A DNA stretch of 64,000 bases, taken from a phage. The notes below the pieces were generated by a model. That model had not been told where the DNA came from. It saw nothing but the letters and a program-made list of their open reading frames with translations, and ran no database searches. A program made the position numbers and the translations under genes. Shown piece by piece: positions 6,195 through 64,000 of the stretch (positions are counted from its first letter, which is position 1; each line of letters begins with the position of its first letter). The stretch is from the sequence record PZ495249.1; one strand, written 5' to 3'.

Positions 6195-7313
6195 ATGCAG
6201 CAAACAAATCCTACCCTATACGGGAAAGACTCGAAAGGTAATATCAAAGAGTGGTCTGTTTACACTGACGGCGCAACTGTGACGGTAGCTCACGGTCGTC
6301 TTGGTGGTAAGATCACCACTAAGTCCTATGAAGCGGAAGCTAAGAACGTTGGACGTTCCAATGAAACAACTCCGGCTGAACAAGCCGAATCAGAAGCCTT
6401 AGCCAAATGGACTAAGCAACTCAAACGTGGGTACTACCACACCATTGAAGAAGCGAAAGAGCATGAACCTTTCACGCCCATGAAATGCCAGGACTATAAA
6501 GACTTCTCACACAAAGTGAAGTTCCCTGGTTATGCACAATACAAGTTGAATGGCTTACGCTCCATGATCAACGATGATGGTGAATGCCTGTCCAAAGCTG
6601 GTGAAGTTTATAAGCTCCCTAACCACTGGTCGCCTATCCCTCAGTTTATTCAAGAAGATTTCGGATATCCGTTAGATGGTGAAGTGTTTGCTGGTCTTGG
6701 TGTTATGAGCCTACAGGTCATCAATGGTGCATGGAAGAAGTACAAACCAGGTATCACTGAGCAATTAAGTTACTACGTCTACGACATTCCAGTGCCAGAT
6801 TTGCCTTTCAAGAAACGTGTTGAATTCCTGAAAGACTTGGCAGAGATGATTGTGGATGCTGGTCTGGAAAACCTGATCCATGTTGTCCATTCCGAATACA
6901 TCGAAAACCAAGAGCAGTTAGACGCTTTCTATGAGAAAGCCCTGGCAGATGAGGCCGAAGGTATTGTATGGCGTAACGAAGACGGTACTTATGAGTTTGG
7001 TAAACGTTCCTATGATGTGATCAAACGTAAACCTCGTGCAACTATGGAAGTCAAGGTAACAGGTATGGTTATTGATAAAAATGGTGATGGGGTATTGACA
7101 GGGATTACAAAAGATGGTAAGATTGTCGAATTCCTGATGAGGAAAGATTCACATCCTACCATCAACTACCGCAAAGCAGAAAACGCCGTCAAACTTATCG
7201 ATCACTTTGTTGAAATTGAATACGAAGAGTTATCTGACGCTGGCGTACCTACAAAACCAGTTGGCATTCGTCTGAGACAAATGATCGAAGGTACATGGGA
7301 ACCTGCCGAATAA
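6195..7313 (+). CDS. ATP-dependent nucleic-acid ligase-like protein (putative DNA ligase)
   Basis: Track ORF; nucleotidyltransferase motifs KLNGLR (I, variant of KxDGxR), LDGEVF (III), EGIVWRNEDG (IV), VIKRKPR (V). Confidence 0.6.
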   Translation: MQQTNPTLYGKDSKGNIKEWSVYTDGATVTVAHGRLGGKITTKSYEAEAKNVGRSNETTPAEQAESEALAKWTKQLKRGYYHTIEEAKEHEPFTPMKCQDYKDFSHKVKFPGYAQYKLNGLRSMINDDGECLSKAGEVYKLPNHWSPIPQFIQEDFGYPLDGEVFAGLGVMSLQVINGAWKKYKPGITEQLSYYVYDIPVPDLPFKKRVEFLKDLAEMIVDAGLENLIHVVHSEYIENQEQLDAFYEKALADEAEGIVWRNEDGTYEFGKRSYDVIKRKPRATMEVKVTGMVIDKNGDGVLTGITKDGKIVEFLMRKDSHPTINYRKAENAVKLIDHFVEIEYEELSDAGVPTKPVGIRLRQMIEGTWEPAE

Positions 7314-11911: not shown

Positions 11912-11915
11912 TATA

Positions 11916-15596: not shown

Positions 15597-15625
15597 TTGA
15601 CTTTTAGTTGAGATTCATGTAAGAT
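15597..15625 (+). promoter_or_regulatory. sigma70-like promoter
   Basis: TTGACT-17nt-TAAGAT; 5' UTR hairpin GGGAGAGCTATGTCTCTCCC follows. Confidence 0.5.
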
Positions 15626-34079: not shown

Positions 34080-35009
34080 ATGATTATGGTTGGTAGCCGT
34101 GGTTTAGAGATTCAATTAGAACGGGAGGCTAAGAAATTTTATCGCCCTTGTCTTGATCTTGACTTTCTTTGCACAGAGAAGGAGTGGAGTATAGCATTCA
34201 TCCGTTACACCCACGAAGAAGGCGTTGAGCTTGTGGAACGTACTGGCAACAAAGGTCATGTCAAACTGACAGATGGGACACATATCGAGTTTGATATTGC
34301 TCAACCTGGCGATAGCACAGATATTCTGATCCAATATTGCAAGGCAAACCCACAGAGTATGTTCCTTAACAACGGTGATTTCGTGGCTCCGGTGGATGTT
34401 CTGTATCTGCTGAAAATGAGTCATCGTTATAAGAAGAATAGCCCTCATTTCTTCAAGACCATGAATGATATCCATTTCATGCGTTCTCTTGGGGCTAAGA
34501 TCCCAGTGGAATTAGAAGAAGTGTTTAAGCTGCGTGAGAAAGAGACTTACGATTACTCACACCCAAATCTGGATGTGAAGAGCAAAGACTTCTTCAAAGG
34601 TGATGAAGTGCCGTATGTTTACGATCACGACACGATTCATGAAGCAGTGGCGGTGTTGGGTGTACCTGCATACAAATCTTACATGAAAGATGACAGCGAA
34701 GTGATGACTTCCAAAGAGAAGTTCTTTGAACAGGAAAATCATATCCGTCTTCTCGGTGTGTACGAAGAGAGCTGCGTACTGGCACTGGAACGTTCGCAGA
34801 TTCCGTTCAATTTCGAGGTTCCGGCTCGTCAGAGTTTTGTTATGGCACTTAGTAAAGTTTGCACATCGATCACTTCCGGCTGGTTCCGTGAGTACGCCTG
34901 GGAGAACTTCGGGGTTGTCATGAAGTTCTATGAAAGCATGGGTGAAACTGATTACATTGAGCGATTCAAAGCTAATCAACACCTGGTTAAACCATTCGAG
35001 GGGGAATAA
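34080..35009 (+). CDS. hypothetical protein (309 aa)
   Basis: Track ORF with GAGAGGAGAAAC RBS; no confident domain. Confidence 0.5.
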   Translation: MIMVGSRGLEIQLEREAKKFYRPCLDLDFLCTEKEWSIAFIRYTHEEGVELVERTGNKGHVKLTDGTHIEFDIAQPGDSTDILIQYCKANPQSMFLNNGDFVAPVDVLYLLKMSHRYKKNSPHFFKTMNDIHFMRSLGAKIPVELEEVFKLREKETYDYSHPNLDVKSKDFFKGDEVPYVYDHDTIHEAVAVLGVPAYKSYMKDDSEVMTSKEKFFEQENHIRLLGVYEESCVLALERSQIPFNFEVPARQSFVMALSKVCTSITSGWFREYAWENFGVVMKFYESMGETDYIERFKANQHLVKPFEGE

Positions 35010-39342: not shown

Positions 39343-39365
39343 AAAAAAACCCGCCGAAGCGGGTT
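39343..39365 (-). terminator. rho-independent terminator (same hairpin as 11916/33987, minus strand)
   Basis: Plus strand AAAAAAACCCGCCGAAGCGGGTT. Confidence 0.65.
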
Positions 39366-55295: not shown

Positions 55296-55708
55296 ATCAG
55301 TTGCTCCTTAACGATTTTCTCAATCGTCTTGTACAGACGTTCCGCACGATCTACTCCTGTCTGAGGATTACCATAATCACGGATCAGAGAGAGCAATCGT
55401 TCCTGACGTTCGTTGGAAGCTTCCACCATCTCTGCATAGAGAGCATCCAGATCAATCTCTTGTGACTTACACACATAAGGTGTCTCTTGAGGAGCGTGAG
55501 CGACGATTTCAAACTCACCATTCCAGAACAGGTAGTAACCCTCGTTGAGACATTCCGAGGTGATCCACTCATACCCTGGAACACGCTTAAATTCTTCGCG
55601 TGGAACAAAGACACGATTCTCATTACAATCTTCTGCCTCCACCTCCACAGGGAAATCAATTGCACTCAGACCAACAAACCCACCATCATTTAACAGTCTT
55701 ACTTTCAT
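55292..55708 (-). CDS. hypothetical protein, paralog family C
   Basis: Track ORF 55292..55717 trimmed to ATG; MKVRLLNDGGFVGLSAIDFPVEVEA and LLSLIRDYGNPQTGV. Confidence 0.5.
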   Translation of the reverse strand: MKVRLLNDGGFVGLSAIDFPVEVEAEDCNENRVFVPREEFKRVPGYEWITSECLNEGYYLFWNGEFEIVAHAPQETPYVCKSQEIDLDALYAEMVEASNERQERLLSLIRDYGNPQTGVDRAERLYKTIEKIVKEQLI

Positions 55709-55871
55709 GATATCCACCCCTTATCCGCAGCAACAAACACAAGGAACAACATAGCCCAACACACCAAGAAGGTTGCTACAAGTTCCCACATTAAACGTTT
55801 CATACTCACCTCTCATTGGCTTTCTTTCATGACAATCAGCCTACACCCTTCCCCGAAAGAAAGCAAGCAGT

Positions 55872-56057
55872 TTAAGATAGATACCACTTAAAGCCACAAG
55901 ATGGACAACAAGGCTCTTTGATACGGAGTTGTTCAGGAGCTTTCACCGGAGCATCTTTCAGGTTGTATGAAGTGAAGCATCTTGCACAAGTCACATCCTT
56001 ATCTGGAATCTCCATCTCAAACCAAGGAAGACCATTACCCCTCTTTGTCACTTTCAT
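55872..56057 (-). CDS. hypothetical Zn-ribbon protein
   Basis: Track ORF 55872..56069 trimmed to ATG with GGGAGGG RBS; CARC...CCPSCG. Confidence 0.45.
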   Translation of the reverse strand: MKVTKRGNGLPWFEMEIPDKDVTCARCFTSYNLKDAPVKAPEQLRIKEPCCPSCGFKWYLS

Positions 56058-56375
56058 ATACCCTCCCAATGGAAATCTTTCACGACCTTCATAGTAGACT
56101 TAATTACCCAACATTTCTAATAGCTTTTCCCTATCAATTATCCCCGAATAATCGTCTATTTTCCCCGAAAGATTAGACTAAAATTTCATCAGAGAAATCC
56201 GAATTCTATCCCCGTATACCCAGTTTATTTTGACACCCCCTGTTTTGCTATGAGCAGACCGAAAATATCCTTATAGGTCAGATGGTTAGGCCAAAACACT
56301 GCGCCATTGCGTGAGGTGCTTAACGCGATTTTTCGTGCCACCCCATTTCTCGACCGCACAATCCCCAAATATCAA

Positions 56376-56390
56376 TGAGAATCATTCTCA
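56376..56390. promoter_or_regulatory. perfect 7-1-7 palindrome TGAGAATCATTCTCA, operator-like
   Basis: Identical copy at 58172-58186; related AAATGAGA-N5-TCTCATTT at 56568-56590. Confidence 0.5.
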
Positions 56391-56567
56391 ATATCATTAG
56401 CATTCAATAACTTAGCTCACATTGTATATAGTTTCATGAGTGAACAATTACTTTTCTATCTAACAAGCAATAACTCTTTATGAATCAATGAGTTGGCAAG
56501 TCTAAACATCTGTTTGAGTGTTGCCAAATGGCTCGACCGTGGGCGCTCCCTCCTCGCTCATGCAAAT

Positions 56568-56590
56568 CAAATGAGAATGACTCTCATTTG
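56568..56590. promoter_or_regulatory. inverted repeat CAAATGAGA-N5-TCTCATTTG
   Basis: Shares TGAGA/TCTCA arms with the 15-bp palindromes. Confidence 0.4.
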
Positions 56591-56710
56591 TATATATTCT
56601 GTACCACAAAAGCCCGAATAAATCAAGAAAAGTCTCAAAGTTTCTCTTTTACGAGAAGTGGCTCAACATCTCACGATGTTTCTGCCCCCAAATTATATGC
56701 TTTTGAATGA

Positions 56711-57145
56711 TTAGGGTGCTAACAGTTGCCCTACTCGGTCGCCTGTCATTGCCCCCAAAATGATTAGCAATCGAATAGTTTCACAATGAAACAATCGCTG
56801 ATGATCATACCTGCATTTGTTAGTGTGCTAACAATGCCACCCTGTTATCGTTAGTGTGCTAACGATGATACATGCTAATAATAACGCACGTAATGGTTGA
56901 CAGCGTAAGCTATTACGCTTGCAAACATTGCAAGCTACATAATAACATGAGTGACTATTAGGAATAGTCATGAAATGGTGTGGTGTAGTTGCGTTATTAT
57001 TAGCTGCCTACGTTTCCGGCGTAGGCGCTAATGATACGCTTGCTAATAATTTTCCCCGAAATAATGTACTACGTGATAGTACCCCTCCGTGATGAATAGC
57101 TTTTTGAATAGATTATTCATAAGTTAATAGTTAGAATGCTAACAA
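56711..57145. repeat. four copies of TTAG-N3-GCTAAC inverted-repeat motif (iteron/operator-like)
   Basis: TTGTTAGTGTGCTAACAA at 56817, TCGTTAGTGTGCTAACGA at 56848, TTAGGGTGCTAAC at 56711, TTAGAATGCTAAC at 57131. Confidence 0.5.
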
Positions 57146-57639
57146 TAACAGACAGGAAAAGATAGGGTTTTAAGGGTTAGGGTTAATATAGATAGGCTGA
57201 TAACGGTTTCAGATAGTTATTGTTTCCGGTGTCAGATATGGCGGGGCTTATGGTTAGGATGATAATCATTAAAGGTGAGATAATAACAGTGATTTACTGT
57301 TAGTTGAGTAAGTAAAAGGGAGGTTTCAGGGTGTTAAATACGAATAGTTCCTATTCTCACATTATGCAATGAAAGTGAATAAATAAGCATAGAAAAGTAG
57401 TCAAATGAGAGGCATTATCAATAATGCCGATATTTCCCCGAAAAGGTGGCTTTGTGCTATGCGCGTGATGCTTCGCATCCATTTTAAGCGGTCTAAAACG
57501 CTCTCTGTGAGGCGCAAGACTCACCCCTGGCACTTGATCAAAGGTGCTTAGAAAACGCCATAACGCGATTTATGCACTTTTCGGCTGTGAGTGATTTCGA
57601 TAGGCAGAATCTATGATTCCAGCTATCACGGATCAGGAG

Positions 57640-57670
57640 GCAAAAAGAAAGGGCGCTTTGTGCGCCCTGG
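57640..57670 (-). terminator. rho-independent terminator for right-hand minus-strand block
   Basis: Hairpin GGGCGC-TTTGT-GCGCCC followed on minus strand by TTTCTTTTT. Confidence 0.55.
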
Positions 57671-57689: not shown

Positions 57690-58049
57690 TTAGATTGTGC
57701 CTGTAACGTCGATCCAATAGGATAAATCAATTGTTCCTTTCTCTTTGATTTTTTCCATCAGGCGCTCGGCGCGGTTGGTGCTGTTGATATAATAATCAAA
57801 CATTTCTCCGGTTTCTTCGTCCTCTAATGTTTCGATTCGACCGATGATCACATGGTCCAGGGCGTAAACCTTGCCAGTGTACCAGTTAGTGAGATGAATC
57901 TCGCACTTATAATCATCTGATCCGCTGTCAATGGTTACAACGTCGATTAAATCACCTTTAAACACTGACAGGCTCCACATTGGATCGTTATCCACTACAC
58001 CGCCAAAATCTTTGCCTTTGATAGTAGTTGCCAGGTTAATGATAGTCAT
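57690..58049 (-). CDS. hypothetical protein
   Basis: Track ORF. Confidence 0.5.
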   Translation of the reverse strand: MTIINLATTIKGKDFGGVVDNDPMWSLSVFKGDLIDVVTIDSGSDDYKCEIHLTNWYTGKVYALDHVIIGRIETLEDEETGEMFDYYINSTNRAERLMEKIKEKGTIDLSYWIDVTGTI

Positions 58050-58171
58050 GGTGATTTCCTCGTTTACCGTTTTTCGTTTGGGCTGTTCTGCCCCTCTGAA
58101 AGTAATATTAAGCTATCTTGATTCATCCGTCAATAGTTAATTGTGTAAAGATGCAAAATAAATTTTGTGAA

Positions 58172-58186
58172 TGAGAATCATTCTCA
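58172..58186. promoter_or_regulatory. second copy of TGAGAATCATTCTCA palindrome
   Basis: Identical to 56376-56390; upstream (minus sense) of 57690..58049. Confidence 0.5.
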
Positions 58187-58443
58187 AATTATATTTCACG
58201 TAGCTCCCGTGTGTTTCCTTCGGTTTCATCGTTGCCGCCTCTATAAACATCATAACAAAACCAGGACAAAAAGCAAGCCCTGGAATTGTAAAGATTTAGT
58301 TAATCCACAAATTGATAATGGATATTGCTTCCTTTTCATCCTGTGCGTTCAAGTACAGATCTCGCACTATGATCAGCCTGTTACGGTCATCAAGATCTTT
58401 AACCTTCTCCCATTGCAGGGCATAAACCAGGGCTTCACGCATA

Positions 58444-58776
58444 TCATTGAACATAGTTACCTCTTTTTATTTCGCCTTCTTTCGGTAAAAGTAGCAGGTC
58501 TTTTGCGTTGTGTCCAGTGTAGCGGATCTGCTCCAGGGCCTCATCTATAGCGAAAATCTTCGCTTGTAGTTCACGCTGTCTTTCAATCAAGGCAAGTTGT
58601 AAGTTGTTTACGGCTTCGCCTGGTGTGGCTCCTGTGCTTTCGATCTCACCGTTGCCAGCGCCTGGCATAGCTCCCGCCTTGCTGCTGGCTGTATAATGTC
58701 CACGTTTAGACCAATACACCCTAAACCCTGGCATGTTGAAAACATACTTTTTCAGGATATTGCAAAAGATAATCAT
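58444..58776 (-). CDS. hypothetical protein
   Basis: Track ORF 58444..58797 trimmed to ATG with GAGGAA RBS. Confidence 0.45.
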   Translation of the reverse strand: MIIFCNILKKYVFNMPGFRVYWSKRGHYTASSKAGAMPGAGNGEIESTGATPGEAVNNLQLALIERQRELQAKIFAIDEALEQIRYTGHNAKDLLLLPKEGEIKRGNYVQ

Positions 58777-58781
58777 TCTCG

Positions 58782-59045
58782 TTATTCCTCGATCCAATCT
58801 AACGTTTCACAATATAACTTCGCTGTCAAGTGCTGCACGTAAAATTCATCTTTCGCCCACTCCCTAACAGCCTGATCGAAAGTAGGGTAATCGTAGGCGC
58901 TTGCCTCTTCGGTATTGTGCCACGGGTAAAGCGCGTTATATACCGTTTCAAGCGCTGCGCGTTGCTGCTCAAAGGTCATTGACTCAGGATCATAACATAC
59001 GGGCAAATTGTGCATTGTAAAGCCCTCAAAAATAGTAAATGTCAT
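58782..59045 (-). CDS. hypothetical protein
   Basis: Track ORF. Confidence 0.45.
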   Translation of the reverse strand: MTFTIFEGFTMHNLPVCYDPESMTFEQQRAALETVYNALYPWHNTEEASAYDYPTFDQAVREWAKDEFYVQHLTAKLYCETLDWIEE

Positions 59046-59211
59046 CAGTTACGTGGATCACAATCTGATTAGATTTAAAGTCCACAGAAAATTCACTGGT
59101 GTAATAGTTTGCTGTTTTCGTTGATATAGTTTGCGCCCCTATTGGATTGATCGGGGATGTGATTTCCTCTAACGTGTTACCCGTTGCACTTACTATCAGA
59201 ATGTTGAACAT
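59026..59211 (-). CDS. hypothetical protein
   Basis: Track ORF. Confidence 0.4.
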   Translation of the reverse strand: MFNILIVSATGNTLEEITSPINPIGAQTISTKTANYYTSEFSVDFKSNQIVIHVTDDIYYF

Positions 59212-59256
59212 GTTATCACCTCAAAGGCGGGGAACCGTAGCGGCTCCCCTTATTGG

Positions 59257-59613
59257 TTAGATGGCTGTTTCCAGGAGTTTAGCCAAATCGTTAATTAAAA
59301 AGTAAGGCTTGACAATTTCGAATTTACCGGATTTAAGGATCTCCGCTTTCATTTCGTCATGTTCTGCCTTTGTCAACGTGAAACGCCCCGCGCTATGGTG
59401 CGCCCAATATTTACCGCTTACGCGCTCAAAAGATACGCTTTCAATGGTAATGATAGTCATCATTTCAGCCGCTCCGCTCTCTACGCGAACCATCAGATCA
59501 GCCAGGGAAGATACGCACACCGCGCCGCTTTCGTATGTGCCATTGTTGGCATCAGTGAAAGTGATCAGGGATTTACCTTCTTTGATGGTTACTGGAAAAG
59601 TTACGTTTTTCAT
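59257..59613 (-). CDS. hypothetical protein
   Basis: Track ORF. Confidence 0.5.
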   Translation of the reverse strand: MKNVTFPVTIKEGKSLITFTDANNGTYESGAVCVSSLADLMVRVESGAAEMMTIITIESVSFERVSGKYWAHHSAGRFTLTKAEHDEMKAEILKSGKFEIVKPYFLINDLAKLLETAI

Positions 59614-59698
59614 GATGTTATCCTTTGAGGATGGACGGGGAACCGCTCCCCGCCCTACGCATTAACTATAACAAACGGTGATCAGCGTTGCAAGCGAT

Positions 59699-60082
59699 TT
59701 ATAAATAAATTTTGCCATCGTCGCCAACATAGGGATCGGCTTCGCCGTATGTCTGCGCTAACGTGGTGAGGCGCTCCCCTAAATCACCCAATCCACGATC
59801 CCAGAATCCCGCGCCGTGATGGTTGCGAGTTAACCAGAAGTCATGCCCCGCATACGCGTATGCGCCGCCGTCGCCTTTCCCGTACCATTCAGGCAGATCA
59901 GCCAGGAGGTTAGCCCCTGCAAATAAGAATGATTCGCAATCCTCTTTAACTTTGCGCATCGCTTCGGTGGAAAGTTCGAACCCTTCCAGGCTCTCCAGAT
60001 CTTCGCCGTCCTGGTCTGTCCCGCTGCTACTCCATAACATGCAAACGATATAAGCATTGATGAAAATTTCTTTGTTGGTCAT
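59699..60082 (-). CDS. hypothetical protein
   Basis: Track ORF 59699..60100 trimmed to ATG (MTNKEIF...). Confidence 0.5.
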   Translation of the reverse strand: MTNKEIFINAYIVCMLWSSSGTDQDGEDLESLEGFELSTEAMRKVKEDCESFLFAGANLLADLPEWYGKGDGGAYAYAGHDFWLTRNHHGAGFWDRGLGDLGERLTTLAQTYGEADPYVGDDGKIYL

Positions 60083-60083
60083 G

Positions 60084-60311
60084 TTACACCCCAAAATCAA
60101 AACTATTGAATAAACTTTCAGCTTTTGTCAATGCCAGATCATCCCACTCAGTAAAAAACGCTTTACAGGTGGCTTTACCGTTAACGAAACTTGAAACCTC
60201 ATACACAATGAAACCATTTTCAAGTATAGATGATAATGTAACTTTATTACCGTTTTTCTCGTTTACCTTGATTGTGCTTTCCATCTTATCACCTGTTTTA
60301 TTCTGTATCAT
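60084..60311 (-). CDS. hypothetical protein
   Basis: Track ORF. Confidence 0.45.
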   Translation of the reverse strand: MIQNKTGDKMESTIKVNEKNGNKVTLSSILENGFIVYEVSSFVNGKATCKAFFTEWDDLALTKAESLFNSFDFGV

Positions 60312-60366
60312 GTTTCGATGAATTTATAATACTTGCACCCCACTCGAAACGCAAGCATTATTTTAA

Positions 60367-60651
60367 CTAATTTGAAGATCCGCAACGGTCGCAATAATGA
60401 TCATCATCCTCATCATCTGCCACCTGTCCAACAAAATGATCTACTTTCGCTTTGAGGCTGTTATAATTGTTTTGCACTTCCTGGAACCGCTCCTGGTAGT
60501 ATTCCAGGGCCTCAAAGAGCGCCGCTTCGCTGCTCTTCGCTCTCATTGACAGATTCATCCCGCGCGTTTCGTCATACAGCCAGAACCCGTCTGTGCATTC
60601 AGCAATTGAGATTGTAGCAGACAATTTTTTACTATTCAATACTTTACTCAT
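60367..60651 (-). CDS. hypothetical protein with C-terminal Cys motif
   Basis: Track ORF. Confidence 0.45.
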   Translation of the reverse strand: MSKVLNSKKLSATISIAECTDGFWLYDETRGMNLSMRAKSSEAALFEALEYYQERFQEVQNNYNSLKAKVDHFVGQVADDEDDDHYCDRCGSSN

Positions 60652-60652
60652 C

Positions 60653-60946
60653 TTATTTTGCCTCGGTTGGTAAATGTTTTCTTTCTGGTTCTAATAGTAC
60701 ACGGGTATTATAAGAGAGTAAATAGGTGATCGCGCTTTTCTTCGTGTTGTACTTCTCCGCGATCTGCGCTGGTTTCATCCCGCCGAACTTATGCAGGGCG
60801 CGAATCTCTAATACCTGCTGATCTGTCCAGGTGATTTTACGCCCTCGCATATCTTGCTTAGGCTCCTTTCTTTTGTACGGCTCAACACTGATCGCCATAT
60901 TAACGAGGGATTGACGCAATTTTAAATTTTTGTTAGATGTTAACAT
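60653..60946 (-). CDS. hypothetical protein, possible HTH DNA-binding
   Basis: Track ORF; basic, helix-turn-helix-like segment. Confidence 0.45.
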   Translation of the reverse strand: MLTSNKNLKLRQSLVNMAISVEPYKRKEPKQDMRGRKITWTDQQVLEIRALHKFGGMKPAQIAEKYNTKKSAITYLLSYNTRVLLEPERKHLPTEAK

Positions 60947-60991
60947 GTTTCACCCTTTCAATGTTGGCGGCATTGCTGCCGCCTTTGCTGC

Positions 60992-61291
60992 TTATCGTTT
61001 CATAAAATCAATGGCGCTGGTCAGTTGGCTTACGCCGCCTTTCACCTGCTCAGTGATAAGATAGTAGCTCTTTTCCTTCATTGGTGCAAGCGTTATTTTC
61101 CTGATCTCCGCTTTATATTTCGCGGTCACTTTTGCCCCTAACTGATACCCCTTGATCGCGCCCTCAATTGTTGCTAACTGCTGGTTATGAGTTTTATAGA
61201 TAAACTCCGGTTTAAACTCCTGGCGCTGGCAAGCGATCAGAGTGTTGTTAGCAATAGCGCGTAAAGTTGAAAGGAGTTGTAAAGGTTGCAT
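60992..61291 (-). CDS. hypothetical protein
   Basis: Track ORF 60992..61348 trimmed to ATG with GAGGAA RBS. Confidence 0.45.
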   Translation of the reverse strand: MQPLQLLSTLRAIANNTLIACQRQEFKPEFIYKTHNQQLATIEGAIKGYQLGAKVTAKYKAEIRKITLAPMKEKSYYLITEQVKGGVSQLTSAIDFMKR

Positions 61292-61390
61292 ATTGTTTTC
61301 CTCGTTAGTGGTCGGCATCATTGCCGCCCCACAAAATAAGGATAGCAAAACGCCCCAGGGAGATCAAGCCCCAGGGCGAAATAATTCGAT

Positions 61391-61627
61391 TTATTTTTGT
61401 TGCTGGTGTACCAGCTTTAAACCGCGTAAGGCTTGCGCCTTTGTTGGGTGATAACTGGCGCTCTCACGGTTCAAGCCTGAATGAGTCCAGATAAAACCGC
61501 TTTTTGTTTCGCGAATATATCCGATCAGGCGGTTGTATTCCTCTACCGTTCCAGCGTGGATCACTTCGCTGATCTCCCACATACGATCAGGGAATTTTTT
61601 CTTAATGAGAATGCTTTTCGTTTTCAT
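61391..61627 (-). CDS. hypothetical protein
   Basis: Track ORF. Confidence 0.45.
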   Translation of the reverse strand: MKTKSILIKKKFPDRMWEISEVIHAGTVEEYNRLIGYIRETKSGFIWTHSGLNRESASYHPTKAQALRGLKLVHQQQK

Positions 61628-61866
61628 TTGTGGCCTCGTTTCATCACTTTAATAGCTTTAATGCCTTTACTTTCGAACCATTCCGGCGTGCGCATTTGCG
61701 CGGCGCTGCTACGGCTTTTCACCTTGTTAGACAATACACCGTAATAAGTGCCATCAGGATATTGACCGATGAAATAGTGATCTTTAACGCCATATTTCGC
61801 ATCACCTGCTTTCTCAATCGCTGCTGCCAGTTGGTCTAAGTTAAACATGATGATAATCTCTCTCAT
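61624..61866 (-). CDS. hypothetical protein
   Basis: Track ORF. Confidence 0.45.
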   Translation of the reverse strand: MREIIIMFNLDQLAAAIEKAGDAKYGVKDHYFIGQYPDGTYYGVLSNKVKSRSSAAQMRTPEWFESKGIKAIKVMKRGHK

Positions 61867-61940
61867 TTAGGCGGGAACCATTCCCGCCGCCCTATGTGAT
61901 GAATTATGCGCCCTTTCCCTCGGCGCGTCAACTATTATTT

Positions 61941-62396
61941 TTAGTAGTCTGTCAGATTTTCAGGGTTAAGGAATGGGAAGTGATGATCAAGCGTCAACCG
62001 ATCCCATTGCGCTAAATTGTGCTCTGCTGTACGCTTCACCGCTAACCCGCGCTCAATTTTCGCGGCGGCTTCGTCGATCCAGGTTTGGCACATGGTACGC
62101 GCTCGCATCATGAAAACGGATTCACCAGGATAAGTCTGTAAGTGATCCATTTCCTCAAGCGCAGCCATATAATCCCGAAAGGCTTCACGCGCTACGTGTT
62201 GACCTTCACCGAATTTTGAATGATGGTAAAAATAGTTGGTCTTATCCATAAATTCAGGTTCAATCTGGTAGGCGCTTTCCACGTCCTCAATTTTGCCATC
62301 CAGGACGATCACGCCCTCGCCACGTAAGGCGGTTACAACGTGGATCTTACGCTCGTTTAAACTGATAACCTTTTGACCTACGCAGAATTTATTCAT
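61941..62396 (-). CDS. hypothetical protein
   Basis: Track ORF 61941..62492 trimmed to ATG with GAAGGA RBS. Confidence 0.5.
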   Translation of the reverse strand: MNKFCVGQKVISLNERKIHVVTALRGEGVIVLDGKIEDVESAYQIEPEFMDKTNYFYHHSKFGEGQHVAREAFRDYMAALEEMDHLQTYPGESVFMMRARTMCQTWIDEAAAKIERGLAVKRTAEHNLAQWDRLTLDHHFPFLNPENLTDY

Positions 62397-62751
62397 GGTG
62401 CAATCCTTCGGATTTTCTGGCGTTGCACTATTGCCCCGCCCTATGTGATAAATAATAGCACGTAGCCGAAAGGATGCAACCCTTTTCTGCAATCTTTACA
62501 ATATTCACTTTATTGCATAGAAATGCACCCGTATGCAAATAATCACACGGTGAAACTAAATTTAAGACGCTTTGAGCGTTTTGGGAAAAGTCAATACCCC
62601 GTAAAACGCTCTAAAACGCCCCCTAAGAGGCTCTAACCGTTTCCCGTACCCTTGATCATTCTCTCCCTGATCTCGCTAAATTCACTTTTTTGCATAACGC
62701 AAAAATGAAAAATAATTGCGGGAACTCTTGACAAGCTCCCGCTCTTGTGAA

Positions 62752-62985
62752 TCAATCGAGGCGTGAAACGATGTAGTATAGATCTTGCTCTTTGTCGAAC
62801 AATTGAGAATCTTTCTCATCTATCAAATTACGGATCGCCATCAAGTGATCATTGGCTGGAATTTGTGCTGTACCTAATTGAGAAGCAATCTCATTAAGTA
62901 AACGCTGCGCGGTGTCGATAGCGTGGCGCTGCTGTCTTACGGTCGCATAGTCAAGTGCTGATTTTTTGATTGACACGTTAGCCAT
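62752..62985 (-). CDS. hypothetical protein
   Basis: Track ORF. Confidence 0.45.
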   Translation of the reverse strand: MANVSIKKSALDYATVRQQRHAIDTAQRLLNEIASQLGTAQIPANDHLMAIRNLIDEKDSQLFDKEQDLYYIVSRLD

Positions 62986-63219
62986 TTTCTGATCTCCAGG
63001 TTAAACGATGTTTCAGGATAGTAAAGAAAATAATACAATGAGCGCTAAAAAGTAAGATGCAATTTTGCACATTTTCGCCCCTTCCTCATAGGCAGGGTTT
63101 ACTGTGCTGTATTCCACTTGATAACGTTTCATTGGTTTACCCTCTCATGATAACCACCGCAAAAACCATTATCCATAACACGGCGGCAAAAGCAAGTTTT
63201 ATTTTAGTGTCACGTTCCA

Positions 63220-63510
63220 TCATGCCACCACCTGGAAAACATCATTGACAATTGCAGCCACGAAAGACGGCGCACAATTTGCCGGAAAAGGCAAGGAAAA
63301 ATCCTGGCTTGTTTCGTTATCAGTAGTTATCAAATGATAAGCTAATGAATAATAACCTTTCTTCACTTCTTTCAGACTGAGGATCAAAAGCGCCCCGTTG
63401 TTACCATCGCGTAACATTGCGATCAGCGTGTCGCCGTCCTGGTGTCTCTCCACCGTCACCGCATCACTGCTTACACCGCTAAACATAAGTAAAGATTTTG
63501 CCTGTTCCAT
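63220..63510 (-). CDS. hypothetical protein
   Basis: Track ORF. Confidence 0.45.
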   Translation of the reverse strand: MEQAKSLLMFSGVSSDAVTVERHQDGDTLIAMLRDGNNGALLILSLKEVKKGYYSLAYHLITTDNETSQDFSLPFPANCAPSFVAAIVNDVFQVVA

Positions 63511-63563
63511 TTTCTGCCCCTGTTGTTACTGTCATTACAGCTTAACCGTGATCGGCTCGTTTG

Positions 63564-63950
63564 TCAACTCTTTAAGTAATAACATTGCGCCATCGTGTAA
63601 ACGGTCATTTTGCCGATCATATCTTCAATCGCTCTTGTCATCAGGGGATTAACCTGATAAGGGGCATAATTGCCCCGCGCATTCTGTGCCACCCGCGCCG
63701 CTATAAGCTCGCATGATGCATCAGGATTATTATTGAGAACGGGTATCATTTGAGAATTTAATGCATTCTCAAAAGTTTTAGATAGATTGTAAGATCGTAA
63801 CGTTGCGTTAGTGTCGCCCGAAACTATCAGCATCTTTTCAATGCTGGCTCTGAGATCACGGCTTGCGCTCATTGCGTCGATCTCGGTGTCTGCTGCTGTT
63901 GCATTTAGGCTTACTGCCGCCAGGATAGCGGCGATGATAATCTTTTTCAT
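63564..63950 (-). CDS. secreted/periplasmic hypothetical protein (signal peptide)
   Basis: Track ORF; MKKIIIAAILAAVSLNATAADT; GGAGGAGGG RBS. Confidence 0.5.
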   Translation of the reverse strand: MKKIIIAAILAAVSLNATAADTEIDAMSASRDLRASIEKMLIVSGDTNATLRSYNLSKTFENALNSQMIPVLNNNPDASCELIAARVAQNARGNYAPYQVNPLMTRAIEDMIGKMTVYTMAQCYYLKS

Positions 63951-64000
63951 TTATCCCTCCTCCGGCGGTTATCGCCTCATGTGATCACTATGCGCCAACC

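Follow-up and report, generated by a model that had tools for sequence, protein, structure and literature searches.

Why does the same kind of GC-rich hairpin return in front of one small gene after another in a phage DNA, and what could it do there? The question is raised by sequence record PZ495249.1, of which a stretch of 64,000 nucleotides (nt) was analysed (this whole stretch is called the window hereafter). An earlier note on it had pointed to four strings near 59227, 59647, 61871 and 62436, each just upstream of a minus-strand gene, and had found a shared core followed by a stable hairpin there to be loosely similar to phage-specific promoter or processing sites. The source is a Klebsiella phage in Stephanstirmvirinae: the records closest to the region are those of Klebsiella phages FBKp34, phi1_175008, KP13-26 and KP2025, with about 83-86% identity over approximately half its length, and three of the four carry the Stephanstirmvirinae classification, the KP2025 record being without a subfamily. 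All four strings are present where they had been reported, and they lie upstream of minus-strand starts at 59613 (site A), 61848 (site B), 62396 (site C) and 59211 (site E, that of the 59227 string). As argued below, we think that the elements are probably early-promoter cassettes of a phi92/rV5-type myovirus, resembling the promoter-early stem-loop (PeSL) cassettes of T4-like phages, and that their transcribed hairpin is a 5′-terminal stabiliser or insulator.

Promoter, start region and hairpin

What stands in front of the hairpins? At sites A, B and C, a promoter of the host sigma-70 type appears to lie directly upstream of the core (descending positions denote the minus strand). Promoter A (59693..59665), TTGCAA-17-TATAGT plus an extended -10 TG, was picked up by a consensus scan; its segment from -35 to -10 is nearly invariant in an alignment of five phages, and a promoter is annotated there in FBKp34. 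Promoter B, TTGACG-17-CATAAT (61931..61903), scores 10/12 in the consensus scan. An alignment with its counterparts from phi92 and the four Klebsiella-phage relatives leaves TTGAC unchanged throughout, along with the -10 hexamer's positions 2, 5 and 6; this hexamer is CATAAT in all four Klebsiella phages and TACTAT in phi92. Promoter C was read from the sequence as a -35 TTGCAT (62479..62474), a 16-nt spacer and a -10 TATTAT (62457..62452); it falls below the threshold of the consensus scan, with a -35 element that matches at 3/6 positions, and its orthologs in KP13-26, KP2025 and FBKp34 read TTGACT-16-TATGAT. In alignments with four or five relatives, the segment from -35 to -10 is the best-conserved portion of the intergenic spacers, and the FBKp34 record annotates promoters at the orthologous positions.

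The core follows at a fixed place. An exact 13-mer, TCACATAGGGCGG, has two copies in the window, both on the minus strand (61887-61899 and 62436-62448), and the 8-mer TAGGGCGG has three, on the minus strand only, where 0.56 would be expected; three copies were reached in 2/100 shuffles. At C, the 13-mer (62448..62436) starts 4 nt past the -10 hexamer and would comprise the discriminator, the A at 62444 as predicted start, and the earliest bases of the transcript, its TAGGGCGG part lying 8 nt past the hexamer. At B (61899..61887) the predicted start is the A at 61895, and at A, where TAGGGCGG (59657..59650) lies 7 nt past the hexamer, it is the G at 59658. Because the core is found 7-8 nt past the -10 hexamer at three sites, it is best taken as the transcription start together with the initial transcribed region, and the hairpin as the 5′ end of the mRNA. 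Hairpin A, of the canonical type, is GGGCGGGGA-gcggt-TCCCCGTCC (59655..59633; -21.6 kcal/mol for a 45-nt segment, z -3.65), and hairpin B, also canonical, is GGCGGGAA-tgg-TTCCCGCC (61888..61870; -14.5 kcal/mol, z -2.2). Hairpin C is interrupted, GGCG-GG-GCA-atag-TGC-AA-CGCC (62440..62419; -15.2 kcal/mol for the 48-nt leader, z -2.43), and its outer stem is preserved in KP13-26, KP2025 and FBKp34. At site E the hairpin stands alone, without core and without promoter, between a stop codon at 59257-59259 and the next ribosome binding site (RBS). The sequences of the four sites are real, while the shared core had been overstated, as there is not one uniform motif.

A full cassette, as at A, B and C, would thus consist, in this order, of a host sigma-70-type promoter, a start region ..C-R-T-A-G-G.., a stem-loop, an A-rich spacer, a Shine-Dalgarno (SD) sequence and a start codon; past the hairpin, the order from A-rich stretch to SD and start codon is directly seen. 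Transcription would start at a purine about 8 nt past the -10 hexamer, and the stem-loop, G-rich and then C-rich, would begin 2-4 nt from the predicted 5′ end. This geometry was followed in 33 distinct cassettes. The consensus after the -10 hexamer is t-T-A-T-y-A-C-R-T, with a conserved C7-R8-T9: position 7 is C in 25/33 and position 8 a purine in 30/33. C7-R8 fits, to judge from spacing, the usual Y-1/R+1 pattern of start sites at the usual distance from -10. The stem begins 10.9 ± 1.4 nt (range 9-14) past the hexamer, and if the start is set at position 8, the overhang 5′ of the stem is 2-4 nt in 25 of the 33 cassettes and 5-7 nt in the other eight.

Could core and hairpin instead be read together by a phage-encoded polymerase or sigma factor, like promoters of the T7 type or the hairpin promoters of N4? 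The 23-bp consensus of T7 promoters is TAATACGACTCACTATAGGGAGA. TCACATAGGG presumably resembles T7 TCACTATAGGG, and a loop of 3 nt with a central purine is, we assume, similar to that of promoters of the N4 virion polymerase. Yet a near-consensus sigma-70 promoter stands at the correct spacing before every full copy, the likeness to T7 goes no further than TCAC-ATAGGG and is broken by a 1-nt deletion within the specificity region, and the largest open reading frame (ORF) of the window that a crude ORF pass kept is of 639 amino acids (aa). Searches of the window and of FBKp34 with a covariance model did not find the motif in middle or late regions. The genome paper of rV5 finds only promoters of sigma-70 type, which it proposes to be read by host polymerase, and a T4-late-like motif, present in eight copies upstream of late genes; that of CBB has sigma-70 promoters only. 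A T7-type polymerase promoter was ruled out by the deletion, the sigma-70 promoters and the absence of any ORF above 639 aa in the crude pass, and an N4-like one fell with it, by the sigma-70 promoter before each full copy. Such a phage-specific promoter is therefore hardly credible. The idea of the earlier note stands insofar as the motif is tied to transcription initiation and a stable hairpin follows; its "phage-specific" part gives way to a host sigma-70 pair at three of the four sites.

Recurrence in other phages

Within the window alone, the association of promoter and hairpin is modest: a hairpin by the strict definition is found at 2/46 promoter-like sites, against 0.44 expected (P 0.07). 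Strong support for the cassettes comes from comparison with other genomes, not from within the window. A 57-nt cassette query matched 186 phage records, belonging to Stephanstirmvirinae, Seunavirus and Asteriusvirus; among them are phi92, many coliphages of Phapecoctavirus or Justusliebigvirus, Seunavirus phages of Cronobacter and Salmonella, and jumbo phages of Asteriusvirus. The shared architecture is a consensus promoter, 9-14 nt, GGCGGGAA-YGG-TTCCCGCC, an A-rich spacer, SD and ATG, with approximately ten copies in 12 kb of phi92. In the early region of that phage, from gp225 to gp248, most of the spacers of 75-125 nt consist of TTGACA-16/17-TAnnnT, about 10 nt that are often ATCACATAGGGCGG, and then a hairpin, either GGCGGGAAA-tgg-TTTCCCGCC or GGGCGGCA-atag-TGCCGCTC, followed by an A-rich stretch, SD and ATG. 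phAPEC6 and EspYZU15 have the same layout. On the coding strand of the early region, a hairpin accompanies 10/27 promoter-like sites in phi92 (0.59 expected, P 1.5e-10) and 6/29 in phAPEC6 (P 2e-5), and on the opposite strands of these early regions it accompanies 0/16 and 0/14, respectively.

How local is the motif? In the complete 141-kb genome of FBKp34, four hits of at least 19.6 bits were obtained, all on one strand and all in the small-gene early region at 16.5-24.2 kb. The motif is thus a local feature of early transcription units; the genome-wide search that had been suggested finds it clustered there, on one strand, and not spread through the genome. Nor is the hairpin a host repeat: the 21-nt hairpin of the phi92 type, searched against 596 Gb of bacterial genomes, gave no hit in enterobacteria and only seven elsewhere, scattered among unrelated taxa of high GC. 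In IMG/VR, two large contigs with phi92-type cassettes, 149.5 and 97 kb long, have several copies of the same hairpin apiece; the exact 14-mer ATCACATAGGGCGG is found in that database at 113 loci, mostly by chance, about six being informative (L040, L046, L047, L056, L068 and possibly L008). Literature searches with the motif strings, with FBKp34, and for start-site data of Stephanstirmvirinae, Phapecoctavirus and rV5 turned up no account of the leader hairpin.

Start motif and hairpin need not go together. Two early promoters on the minus strand of the window have no strong leader hairpin, TTGCGT-17-TATTAT at 60354..60326 and TTGACG-17-TAATAT at 58133..58105, the latter driving a Gp30.8-like gene, and the counterparts of the latter in phi92 and EspYZU15 carry ATCACGTAGGGC without a hairpin.

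Pairing and strand

Is it the pairing that has been kept, and on which strand? When 25 distinct hairpins with three-base loops were aligned on the loop, 88.8% of the stem cells were paired, against 76.4 ± 1.5 in shuffles and 40-64% in slid registers, and the cells changed on both sides numbered 29, against 9.9 ± 2.3 in shuffles. Individual orthologs tell of the same thing. At A, GGGG/CCCC has become GGG/CCC, matched on both arms; hairpin E of phi1_175008 has a G.U to A-U and a C-G to U.G change; and at a further site, D, the orthologs read GGGCGGGAA-tgg-TTCCCGAC, in which both arms are replaced (CGGCA/TGCCG as opposed to CGGGAA/TTCCCG) with pairing retained, the ortholog in FBKp34 scoring 19.6 bits with our covariance model, R1.

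As for the strand, R1 gives hairpin A 33.2 bits in sense and 15.2 in antisense, and hairpin B 33.0 and 15.2, both copies being in its training set. A first count of wobble pairs, 24 G.T to 1 A.C, was biased by the choice of hairpins and was replaced by a strand-symmetric test on the positions flanking the Watson-Crick cores, which gave 30 G.T to 13 A.C (P 0.014); this excess favours a structure of the sense strand, namely of RNA. The 5′ arm has a purine content of 88%. The hairpin would accordingly act at the RNA level, and the evidence on structure seems consistent in its direction even if its figures are inflated, as discussed below.

Probable function of the leader hairpin

Host RNA polymerase would transcribe the hairpin, and therefore each such early mRNA would start with a stable 5′-terminal stem-loop. 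The initial transcribed sequence affects promoter escape, and the purine-rich one here may help polymerase to leave near-consensus promoters. RNase E and RppH require single-stranded 5′ ends, which accounts for the long-known stabilisation of mRNA by 5′ structures in E. coli (PMC3997798). For this reason, protection of the early transcripts is the most economical function: the hairpin would shield the 5′ end from the decay that RppH and RNase E start there. A likely second function is insulation, by which the hairpin would keep the RBS apart from the variable gene that follows.

Similar leaders have been known from single genes. Those of ompA and papA are given as mRNA stabilisers with a 5′-terminal stem-loop by Emory, Bouvet and Belasco (1992), as cited in PMC3997798. 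Together with the leader of T7 gene 10 they share with the present elements a stable hairpin a few nt from the mRNA 5′ end, upstream of and separate from the RBS. In contrast, they belong to single genes with measured effects on half-life, whereas here a repeated family with conserved sequence is known from sequence, and the overhang predicted for it is less tight, 2-4 nt and in some copies 5-7. The T7 gene 10 leader, which we take to start with GGG and to fold as GGGAGACC-acaac-GGTTTCCC, would look much like GGGGAGCCG-cta-CGGTTCCCC, that is, hairpin E.

Relation to PeSL cassettes

The closest known system is the PeSL cassette, described in the T4-like phages RB49/phi1, PST and nt-1 (Arbiol et al. 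2010, PMC2839356; Comeau et al. 2014, PMC4122927). Both have a near-consensus sigma-70 promoter for early genes along with a stem-loop made of a G-tract and a C-tract, G.T pairs included, ahead of SD and ATG; both occupy spacers between small orphan early genes, with many copies per genome, coincide with breakpoints of insertion and replacement, and occur also as promoter-less "half" elements. They differ in lineage, since the present ones belong to Stephanstirmvirinae, Vequintavirinae and Asteriusvirus and not to Straboviridae, and in hairpin sequence, GGCGGGAA-YGG-TTCCCGCC here. Most of all they differ in the place of the stem, which is fixed past the start and transcribed into the cassette's own mRNA here, while the stems of RB49, which were checked directly, lie in the -35/-10 spacer or over the -10, and in PST and nt-1 the stem precedes the promoter. 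What the stem does is probably different, too. Copies of PeSL elements can also recombine into mini-circles, and these elements have terminator and promoter activity in reporters. If the features of PeSL elements are looked for one by one, a sigma-70-type early promoter inside the element is read from the sequence at three sites, and small orphan genes with breakpoints are present; a stem upstream of, within or over the promoter is not, except in part for an inverted repeat in the spacer of promoter B and a terminator overlapping the -35 of site D, and the genome is not one of Straboviridae.

The repeat in promoter B, GCGCC-N9-GGCGC at 61906-61928, is not alone. A GC-rich inverted repeat filling the -35/-10 spacer (TTGAC-GCGCCC-aaggaaa-GGGCGC-ATAAT) is found at 61906-61928 of the window, at promoters 18546 and 23565 of FBKp34, and at 6731-6795 of EspYZU15 locus L120. 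As far as can be read from these loci, it is the classic layout of RB49-type PeSL elements, coexisting with the leader-hairpin layout in the same genomes.

Might the stem-loops then mainly stop or dampen transcription arriving from the upstream cassette, as attenuators of the PeSL type, so that each small gene depends on its own promoter only? The G-tract/C-tract stem-loops of RB49/phi1 were reported to cut reporter expression like a strong terminator (PMC2839356), promoter B carries the PeSL-like repeat just mentioned, and two hairpins of the same arm family, at 62742..62718 and 61378..61351, end in T-runs. Like intrinsic terminators, the present hairpins are GC-rich, short-looped and intergenic. 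However, a T-run (at least 5 T in the next 8 nt) follows the stem in 0/33 canonical cassettes, whose flank is A-rich, and the canonical copies stand past a promoter and not past the end of a gene, so that an intrinsic terminator is ruled out for them; those two hairpins are the only ones of this kind in the window with a terminator T-run. Moreover, the hairpins are downstream of the predicted start, where efficient termination would cut off the transcript of the cassette itself as well, the stems of RB49 being inside or over the promoter and never past the start, and the tight distance from -10 to stem (standard deviation 1.4 nt) is not needed by a terminator. We regard an attenuator as unlikely.

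Half cassettes, proposed gene exchange and possible processing

Two hairpins of the region are intercistronic and have no promoter. Hairpin E, GGGGAGCCG-cta-CGGTTCCCC (59249..59229; -19.4 kcal/mol, z -3.2), belongs to the same arm family and may be called a half cassette. Hairpin F, GGCGGCA-gcaa-TGCCGCC (60983..60966; z -2.9), has no T-run, is placed in the spacer that separates the stop at 60992 from the start at 60946, and is kept in KP13-26 and KP2025, where it follows AGGGCGG. The 3′ arm GTTCCC(C)G has four minus-strand copies, all inside 59.2-62.7 kb.

When the window is compared with the four relatives, blocks of homology start or stop at hairpins: their boundaries fall at 59222-59262 (hairpin E), 59606/59638 (hairpin A, where blocks begin), 60950|60957 (hairpin F) and 62717-62732 (where blocks end, at the terminator-like hairpin 62742..62718). 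In KP13-26 and KP2025, hairpin E is an island of 32-41 nt of homology between non-homologous genes, and at the break beside hairpin F the relatives have approximately 275 nt extra. In the phAPEC6 record, several genes flanked by cassettes are labelled rV5-like. The conserved cassettes of about 60-90 bp, together with promoter-less half cassettes (59229-59249 and 60966-60983), would as a by-product provide patches of homology at which small early genes are exchanged, in the way that has been proposed for the PeSL elements of T4-like phages.

The half cassettes also bear on RNA processing, in which RNase III or RNase E would cut at the hairpins, or be guided by them, and turn a polycistronic early RNA into protected monocistronic pieces. 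Hairpins E and F are intercistronic and without promoter, and hairpin processing sites are present between the early genes of phage T7. RNase III needs a stem of about 20 bp, for which stems of only 7-10 bp are short, and most copies are at predicted transcript starts, where there is nothing to cut. Such a role, the other half of what had been suggested for the motif, is quite improbable in our view.

Weighing the stabiliser reading

What speaks against a 5′-terminal stabiliser or insulator? Several points do. A literature search on this phage and its relatives found no transcript 5′ ends, half-lives or reporter data, and the starts are predicted from spacing. An overhang of 3-4 nt is at the upper edge of the protective range. 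The hairpin is not required for early expression, because many early promoters in FBKp34 and the window are without it. The pairing percentages and P values are inflated, because the stem-finding script chose the hairpins and the copies are related. Any model that lets only intact genes survive puts the breakpoints between genes. Finally, the loop is YGG in 20/25 hairpins, with G as third base in 24/25, and the GGGAA/TTCCC top of the stem is conserved across three phage groups. Since pure stabilisers need no particular sequence, this conservation may point to specific recognition, or else to recombination that homogenises the copies.

Specific recognition has therefore to be considered. The hairpin RNA, or the palindromic DNA from +4 to +25, may bind a phage or host protein for shut-off, activation or processing, or may act on the polymerase like nut or put sites. 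Conservation goes beyond the needs of pairing, with A10, T15 and T16 invariant besides the YGG loop in the three groups, and the element overlaps the start region, so placed that an operator there would stand in the way of polymerase. In lambda and HK022, too, the transcription complex responds in cis to short RNA hairpins (nut boxB and put) transcribed shortly downstream of early promoters. Unlike those, the present hairpins lack a boxA-like partner, a conserved GNRA-like pentaloop and the two-hairpin fold of put, and no N-like protein was identified here. The loops vary (tgg, cgg, tag, cac, acttc, gcggt, atag), as do the stems, from 6 to 10 bp; the preference for G.T on one strand argues against a symmetric DNA operator; a scan of the early genes yielded no RNA-binding candidate, only a sub-threshold MarR-like helix-turn-helix in a 97-aa protein (60653-60946); and no Rfam family was matched at E <= 1 in a covariance-model scan of 55.5-64 kb. 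A binding site of this sort does not seem likely to us. Only a little less doubtful is a wider form of the idea, in which the RUAG overhang, the GGGAA/UUCCC top and the YGG triloop, common to Stephanstirmvirinae, Seunavirus and Asteriusvirus, form a tag that is read by a phage or host factor or, as in put, by RNA polymerase and gives early transcripts a distinct fate, or a site that mobilises small orphan-gene cassettes between unrelated phage lineages; the hairpin would then be more than a passive stabiliser.

We therefore keep the stabiliser or insulator as the probable role of the hairpin. What the sequence establishes is the architecture, the fixed geometry, the conservation, the covariation of the stem, the strand specificity, the lack of a T-run, the restriction to the early region and the position of the breakpoints. 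If the stabiliser reading is true, a large group of enterobacterial myoviruses in use for phage therapy work, among them those like phi92, rV5 and 121Q, launch their host-takeover genes from a standard module of promoter and leader, and the idea of mobile regulatory cassettes that drive gene shuffling is extended from T4-like phages to others. A module of approximately 70-90 bp, self-contained and seemingly functional before many unrelated genes, is also attractive as a natural "insulated" expression part. For annotation, it can mark early transcription units and true start codons. Current understanding is not overturned by any of this; the element is real, ordinary-looking and well organised.

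Neighbouring hairpins and genes

How is the rest of the region built? Site D is a weak promoter-like site, with a -35 TTGATC (61367..61362) and a -10 TATCCT (61344..61339); FBKp34, KP13-26 and KP2025 share TATCCT and the spacing, and promoter activity is uncertain because the -10 is poor. Its leader hairpin is GGGGCGGCA-atga-TGCCGACC (61332..61308; -13.6 kcal/mol, z -3.3). The hairpin with a T-run at 61378..61351, from a terminator scan, resembles an intrinsic terminator and carries the -35 of site D in its loop. The other one, GCGGGAGCT-tgtcaag-AGTTCCCGC followed by the T-run AATTATTTTT (62742..62718; z -5.1), is terminator-like and scores weakly with R1, at 11.9 bits.

The genes behind the elements are small and all on the minus strand: 59257..59613 after cassette A (118 aa), 61624..61848 after cassette B, 61941..62396 after cassette C (151 aa) and 59026..59211 after hairpin E (61 aa). 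A mechanical ORF call opens the gene after cassette B at the ATG at 61866, directly after a TAA; because this ATG is out of frame with the ATGTTC start conserved in the relatives, it is probably spurious, and the gene really starts at 61848. A Pfam scan took in ten proteins, of which nine are from the early region and one is a plus-strand control. Those downstream of the cassettes, such as the products of A and C, matched no family; the matches were Gp30.8 (57690-58049) and DUF7275/DUF7277 on the plus-strand protein (34080-35009), with MarR, DUF1033 and spectrin-repeat below threshold.

Directly 3′ of leader hairpins A, C and E, the minus strand has second small hairpins, at 59620-59632, 62402-62414 and 59218-59228, in which SD bases pair with an upstream anti-SD (AUCCUCAAAGGAU, AUCCGAAGGAU and GCCUUUGAGGU, respectively). 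These may tune translation.

Composition and other repeats

Does the region differ from its surroundings? The earlier note had seen a higher GC content there and had proposed to check 57.7-64 kb for a separately acquired module. GC is 0.443 in 57.7-64 kb and 0.435 in the rest of the window, and 11/116 segments of equal size are as high; in 59.22-62.46 kb it is 0.455, a value matched by 7/244 segments. The coding sequences of the early small genes (57690-64000) have a GC of 0.482 at third and 0.489 at first codon positions, compared with about 0.42 and 0.535 in the other genes of the window. This modest shift between codon positions could come from exchange of orphan genes or from different constraints on expression. 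The rise in GC is hence small and the observation only weakly true, and with 0.8 points in GC and about 6 points at third positions, a separately acquired high-GC module is unconvincing as foreign origin, weakly supported at best.

Several further repeats were seen. Between a packed block of minus-strand genes and the small-gene early region, 55700-57650 is an ORF-poor, repeat-rich non-coding stretch with approximately six copies of a palindrome-like AATGaTTAGnnTGCTAACAaT and, on the plus strand, four of (A)TTTTCCCCGAAA; it gave no Rfam hit, and a scan of the whole window for tRNA and tmRNA found none. The stretch could be an origin or a regulatory array; an ORF-free "non-coding" box is described in the rV5 paper.

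The palindrome TGAGAATCATTCTCA is found at 56376-56390, 56572-56586, 58172-58186, 62804-62818 and 62879-62893, besides weaker copies. It is enriched, with 19 matches at up to 3 mismatches on both strands where 3.9 would be expected, and clustered in 56.3-63 kb. The promoter of the Gp30.8-like gene has one copy about 40 nt upstream, and a copy in FBKp34 is just past the annotated promoter 25228. Presumably it resembles the Fur-box consensus, and a regulator of host or phage might use it as an operator.

A second family of intergenic hairpins, unrelated to the first, is located in the block of plus-strand genes, on the plus strand at 11915, 12465, 13656, 18619, 24745, 33987, 36852 and 38425 and on the minus strand at 39348. 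Its forms are AAGGGGC-N4-GCCCCTT, AAGCCCC-N3-7-GGGGCTT and AACCCGC-ttcg-GCGGGTT, most of them with terminator-like T-rich tails, and three are just downstream of sigma-70-like promoters at 15597, 36807 and 38388. Lastly, CTAAAACGC has three plus-strand copies (38725, 57493 and 62611) where 0.34 would be expected, two of which lie in non-coding DNA bordering the early region, at 57.5 kb and in the gap of about 230 nt at 62490-62717.

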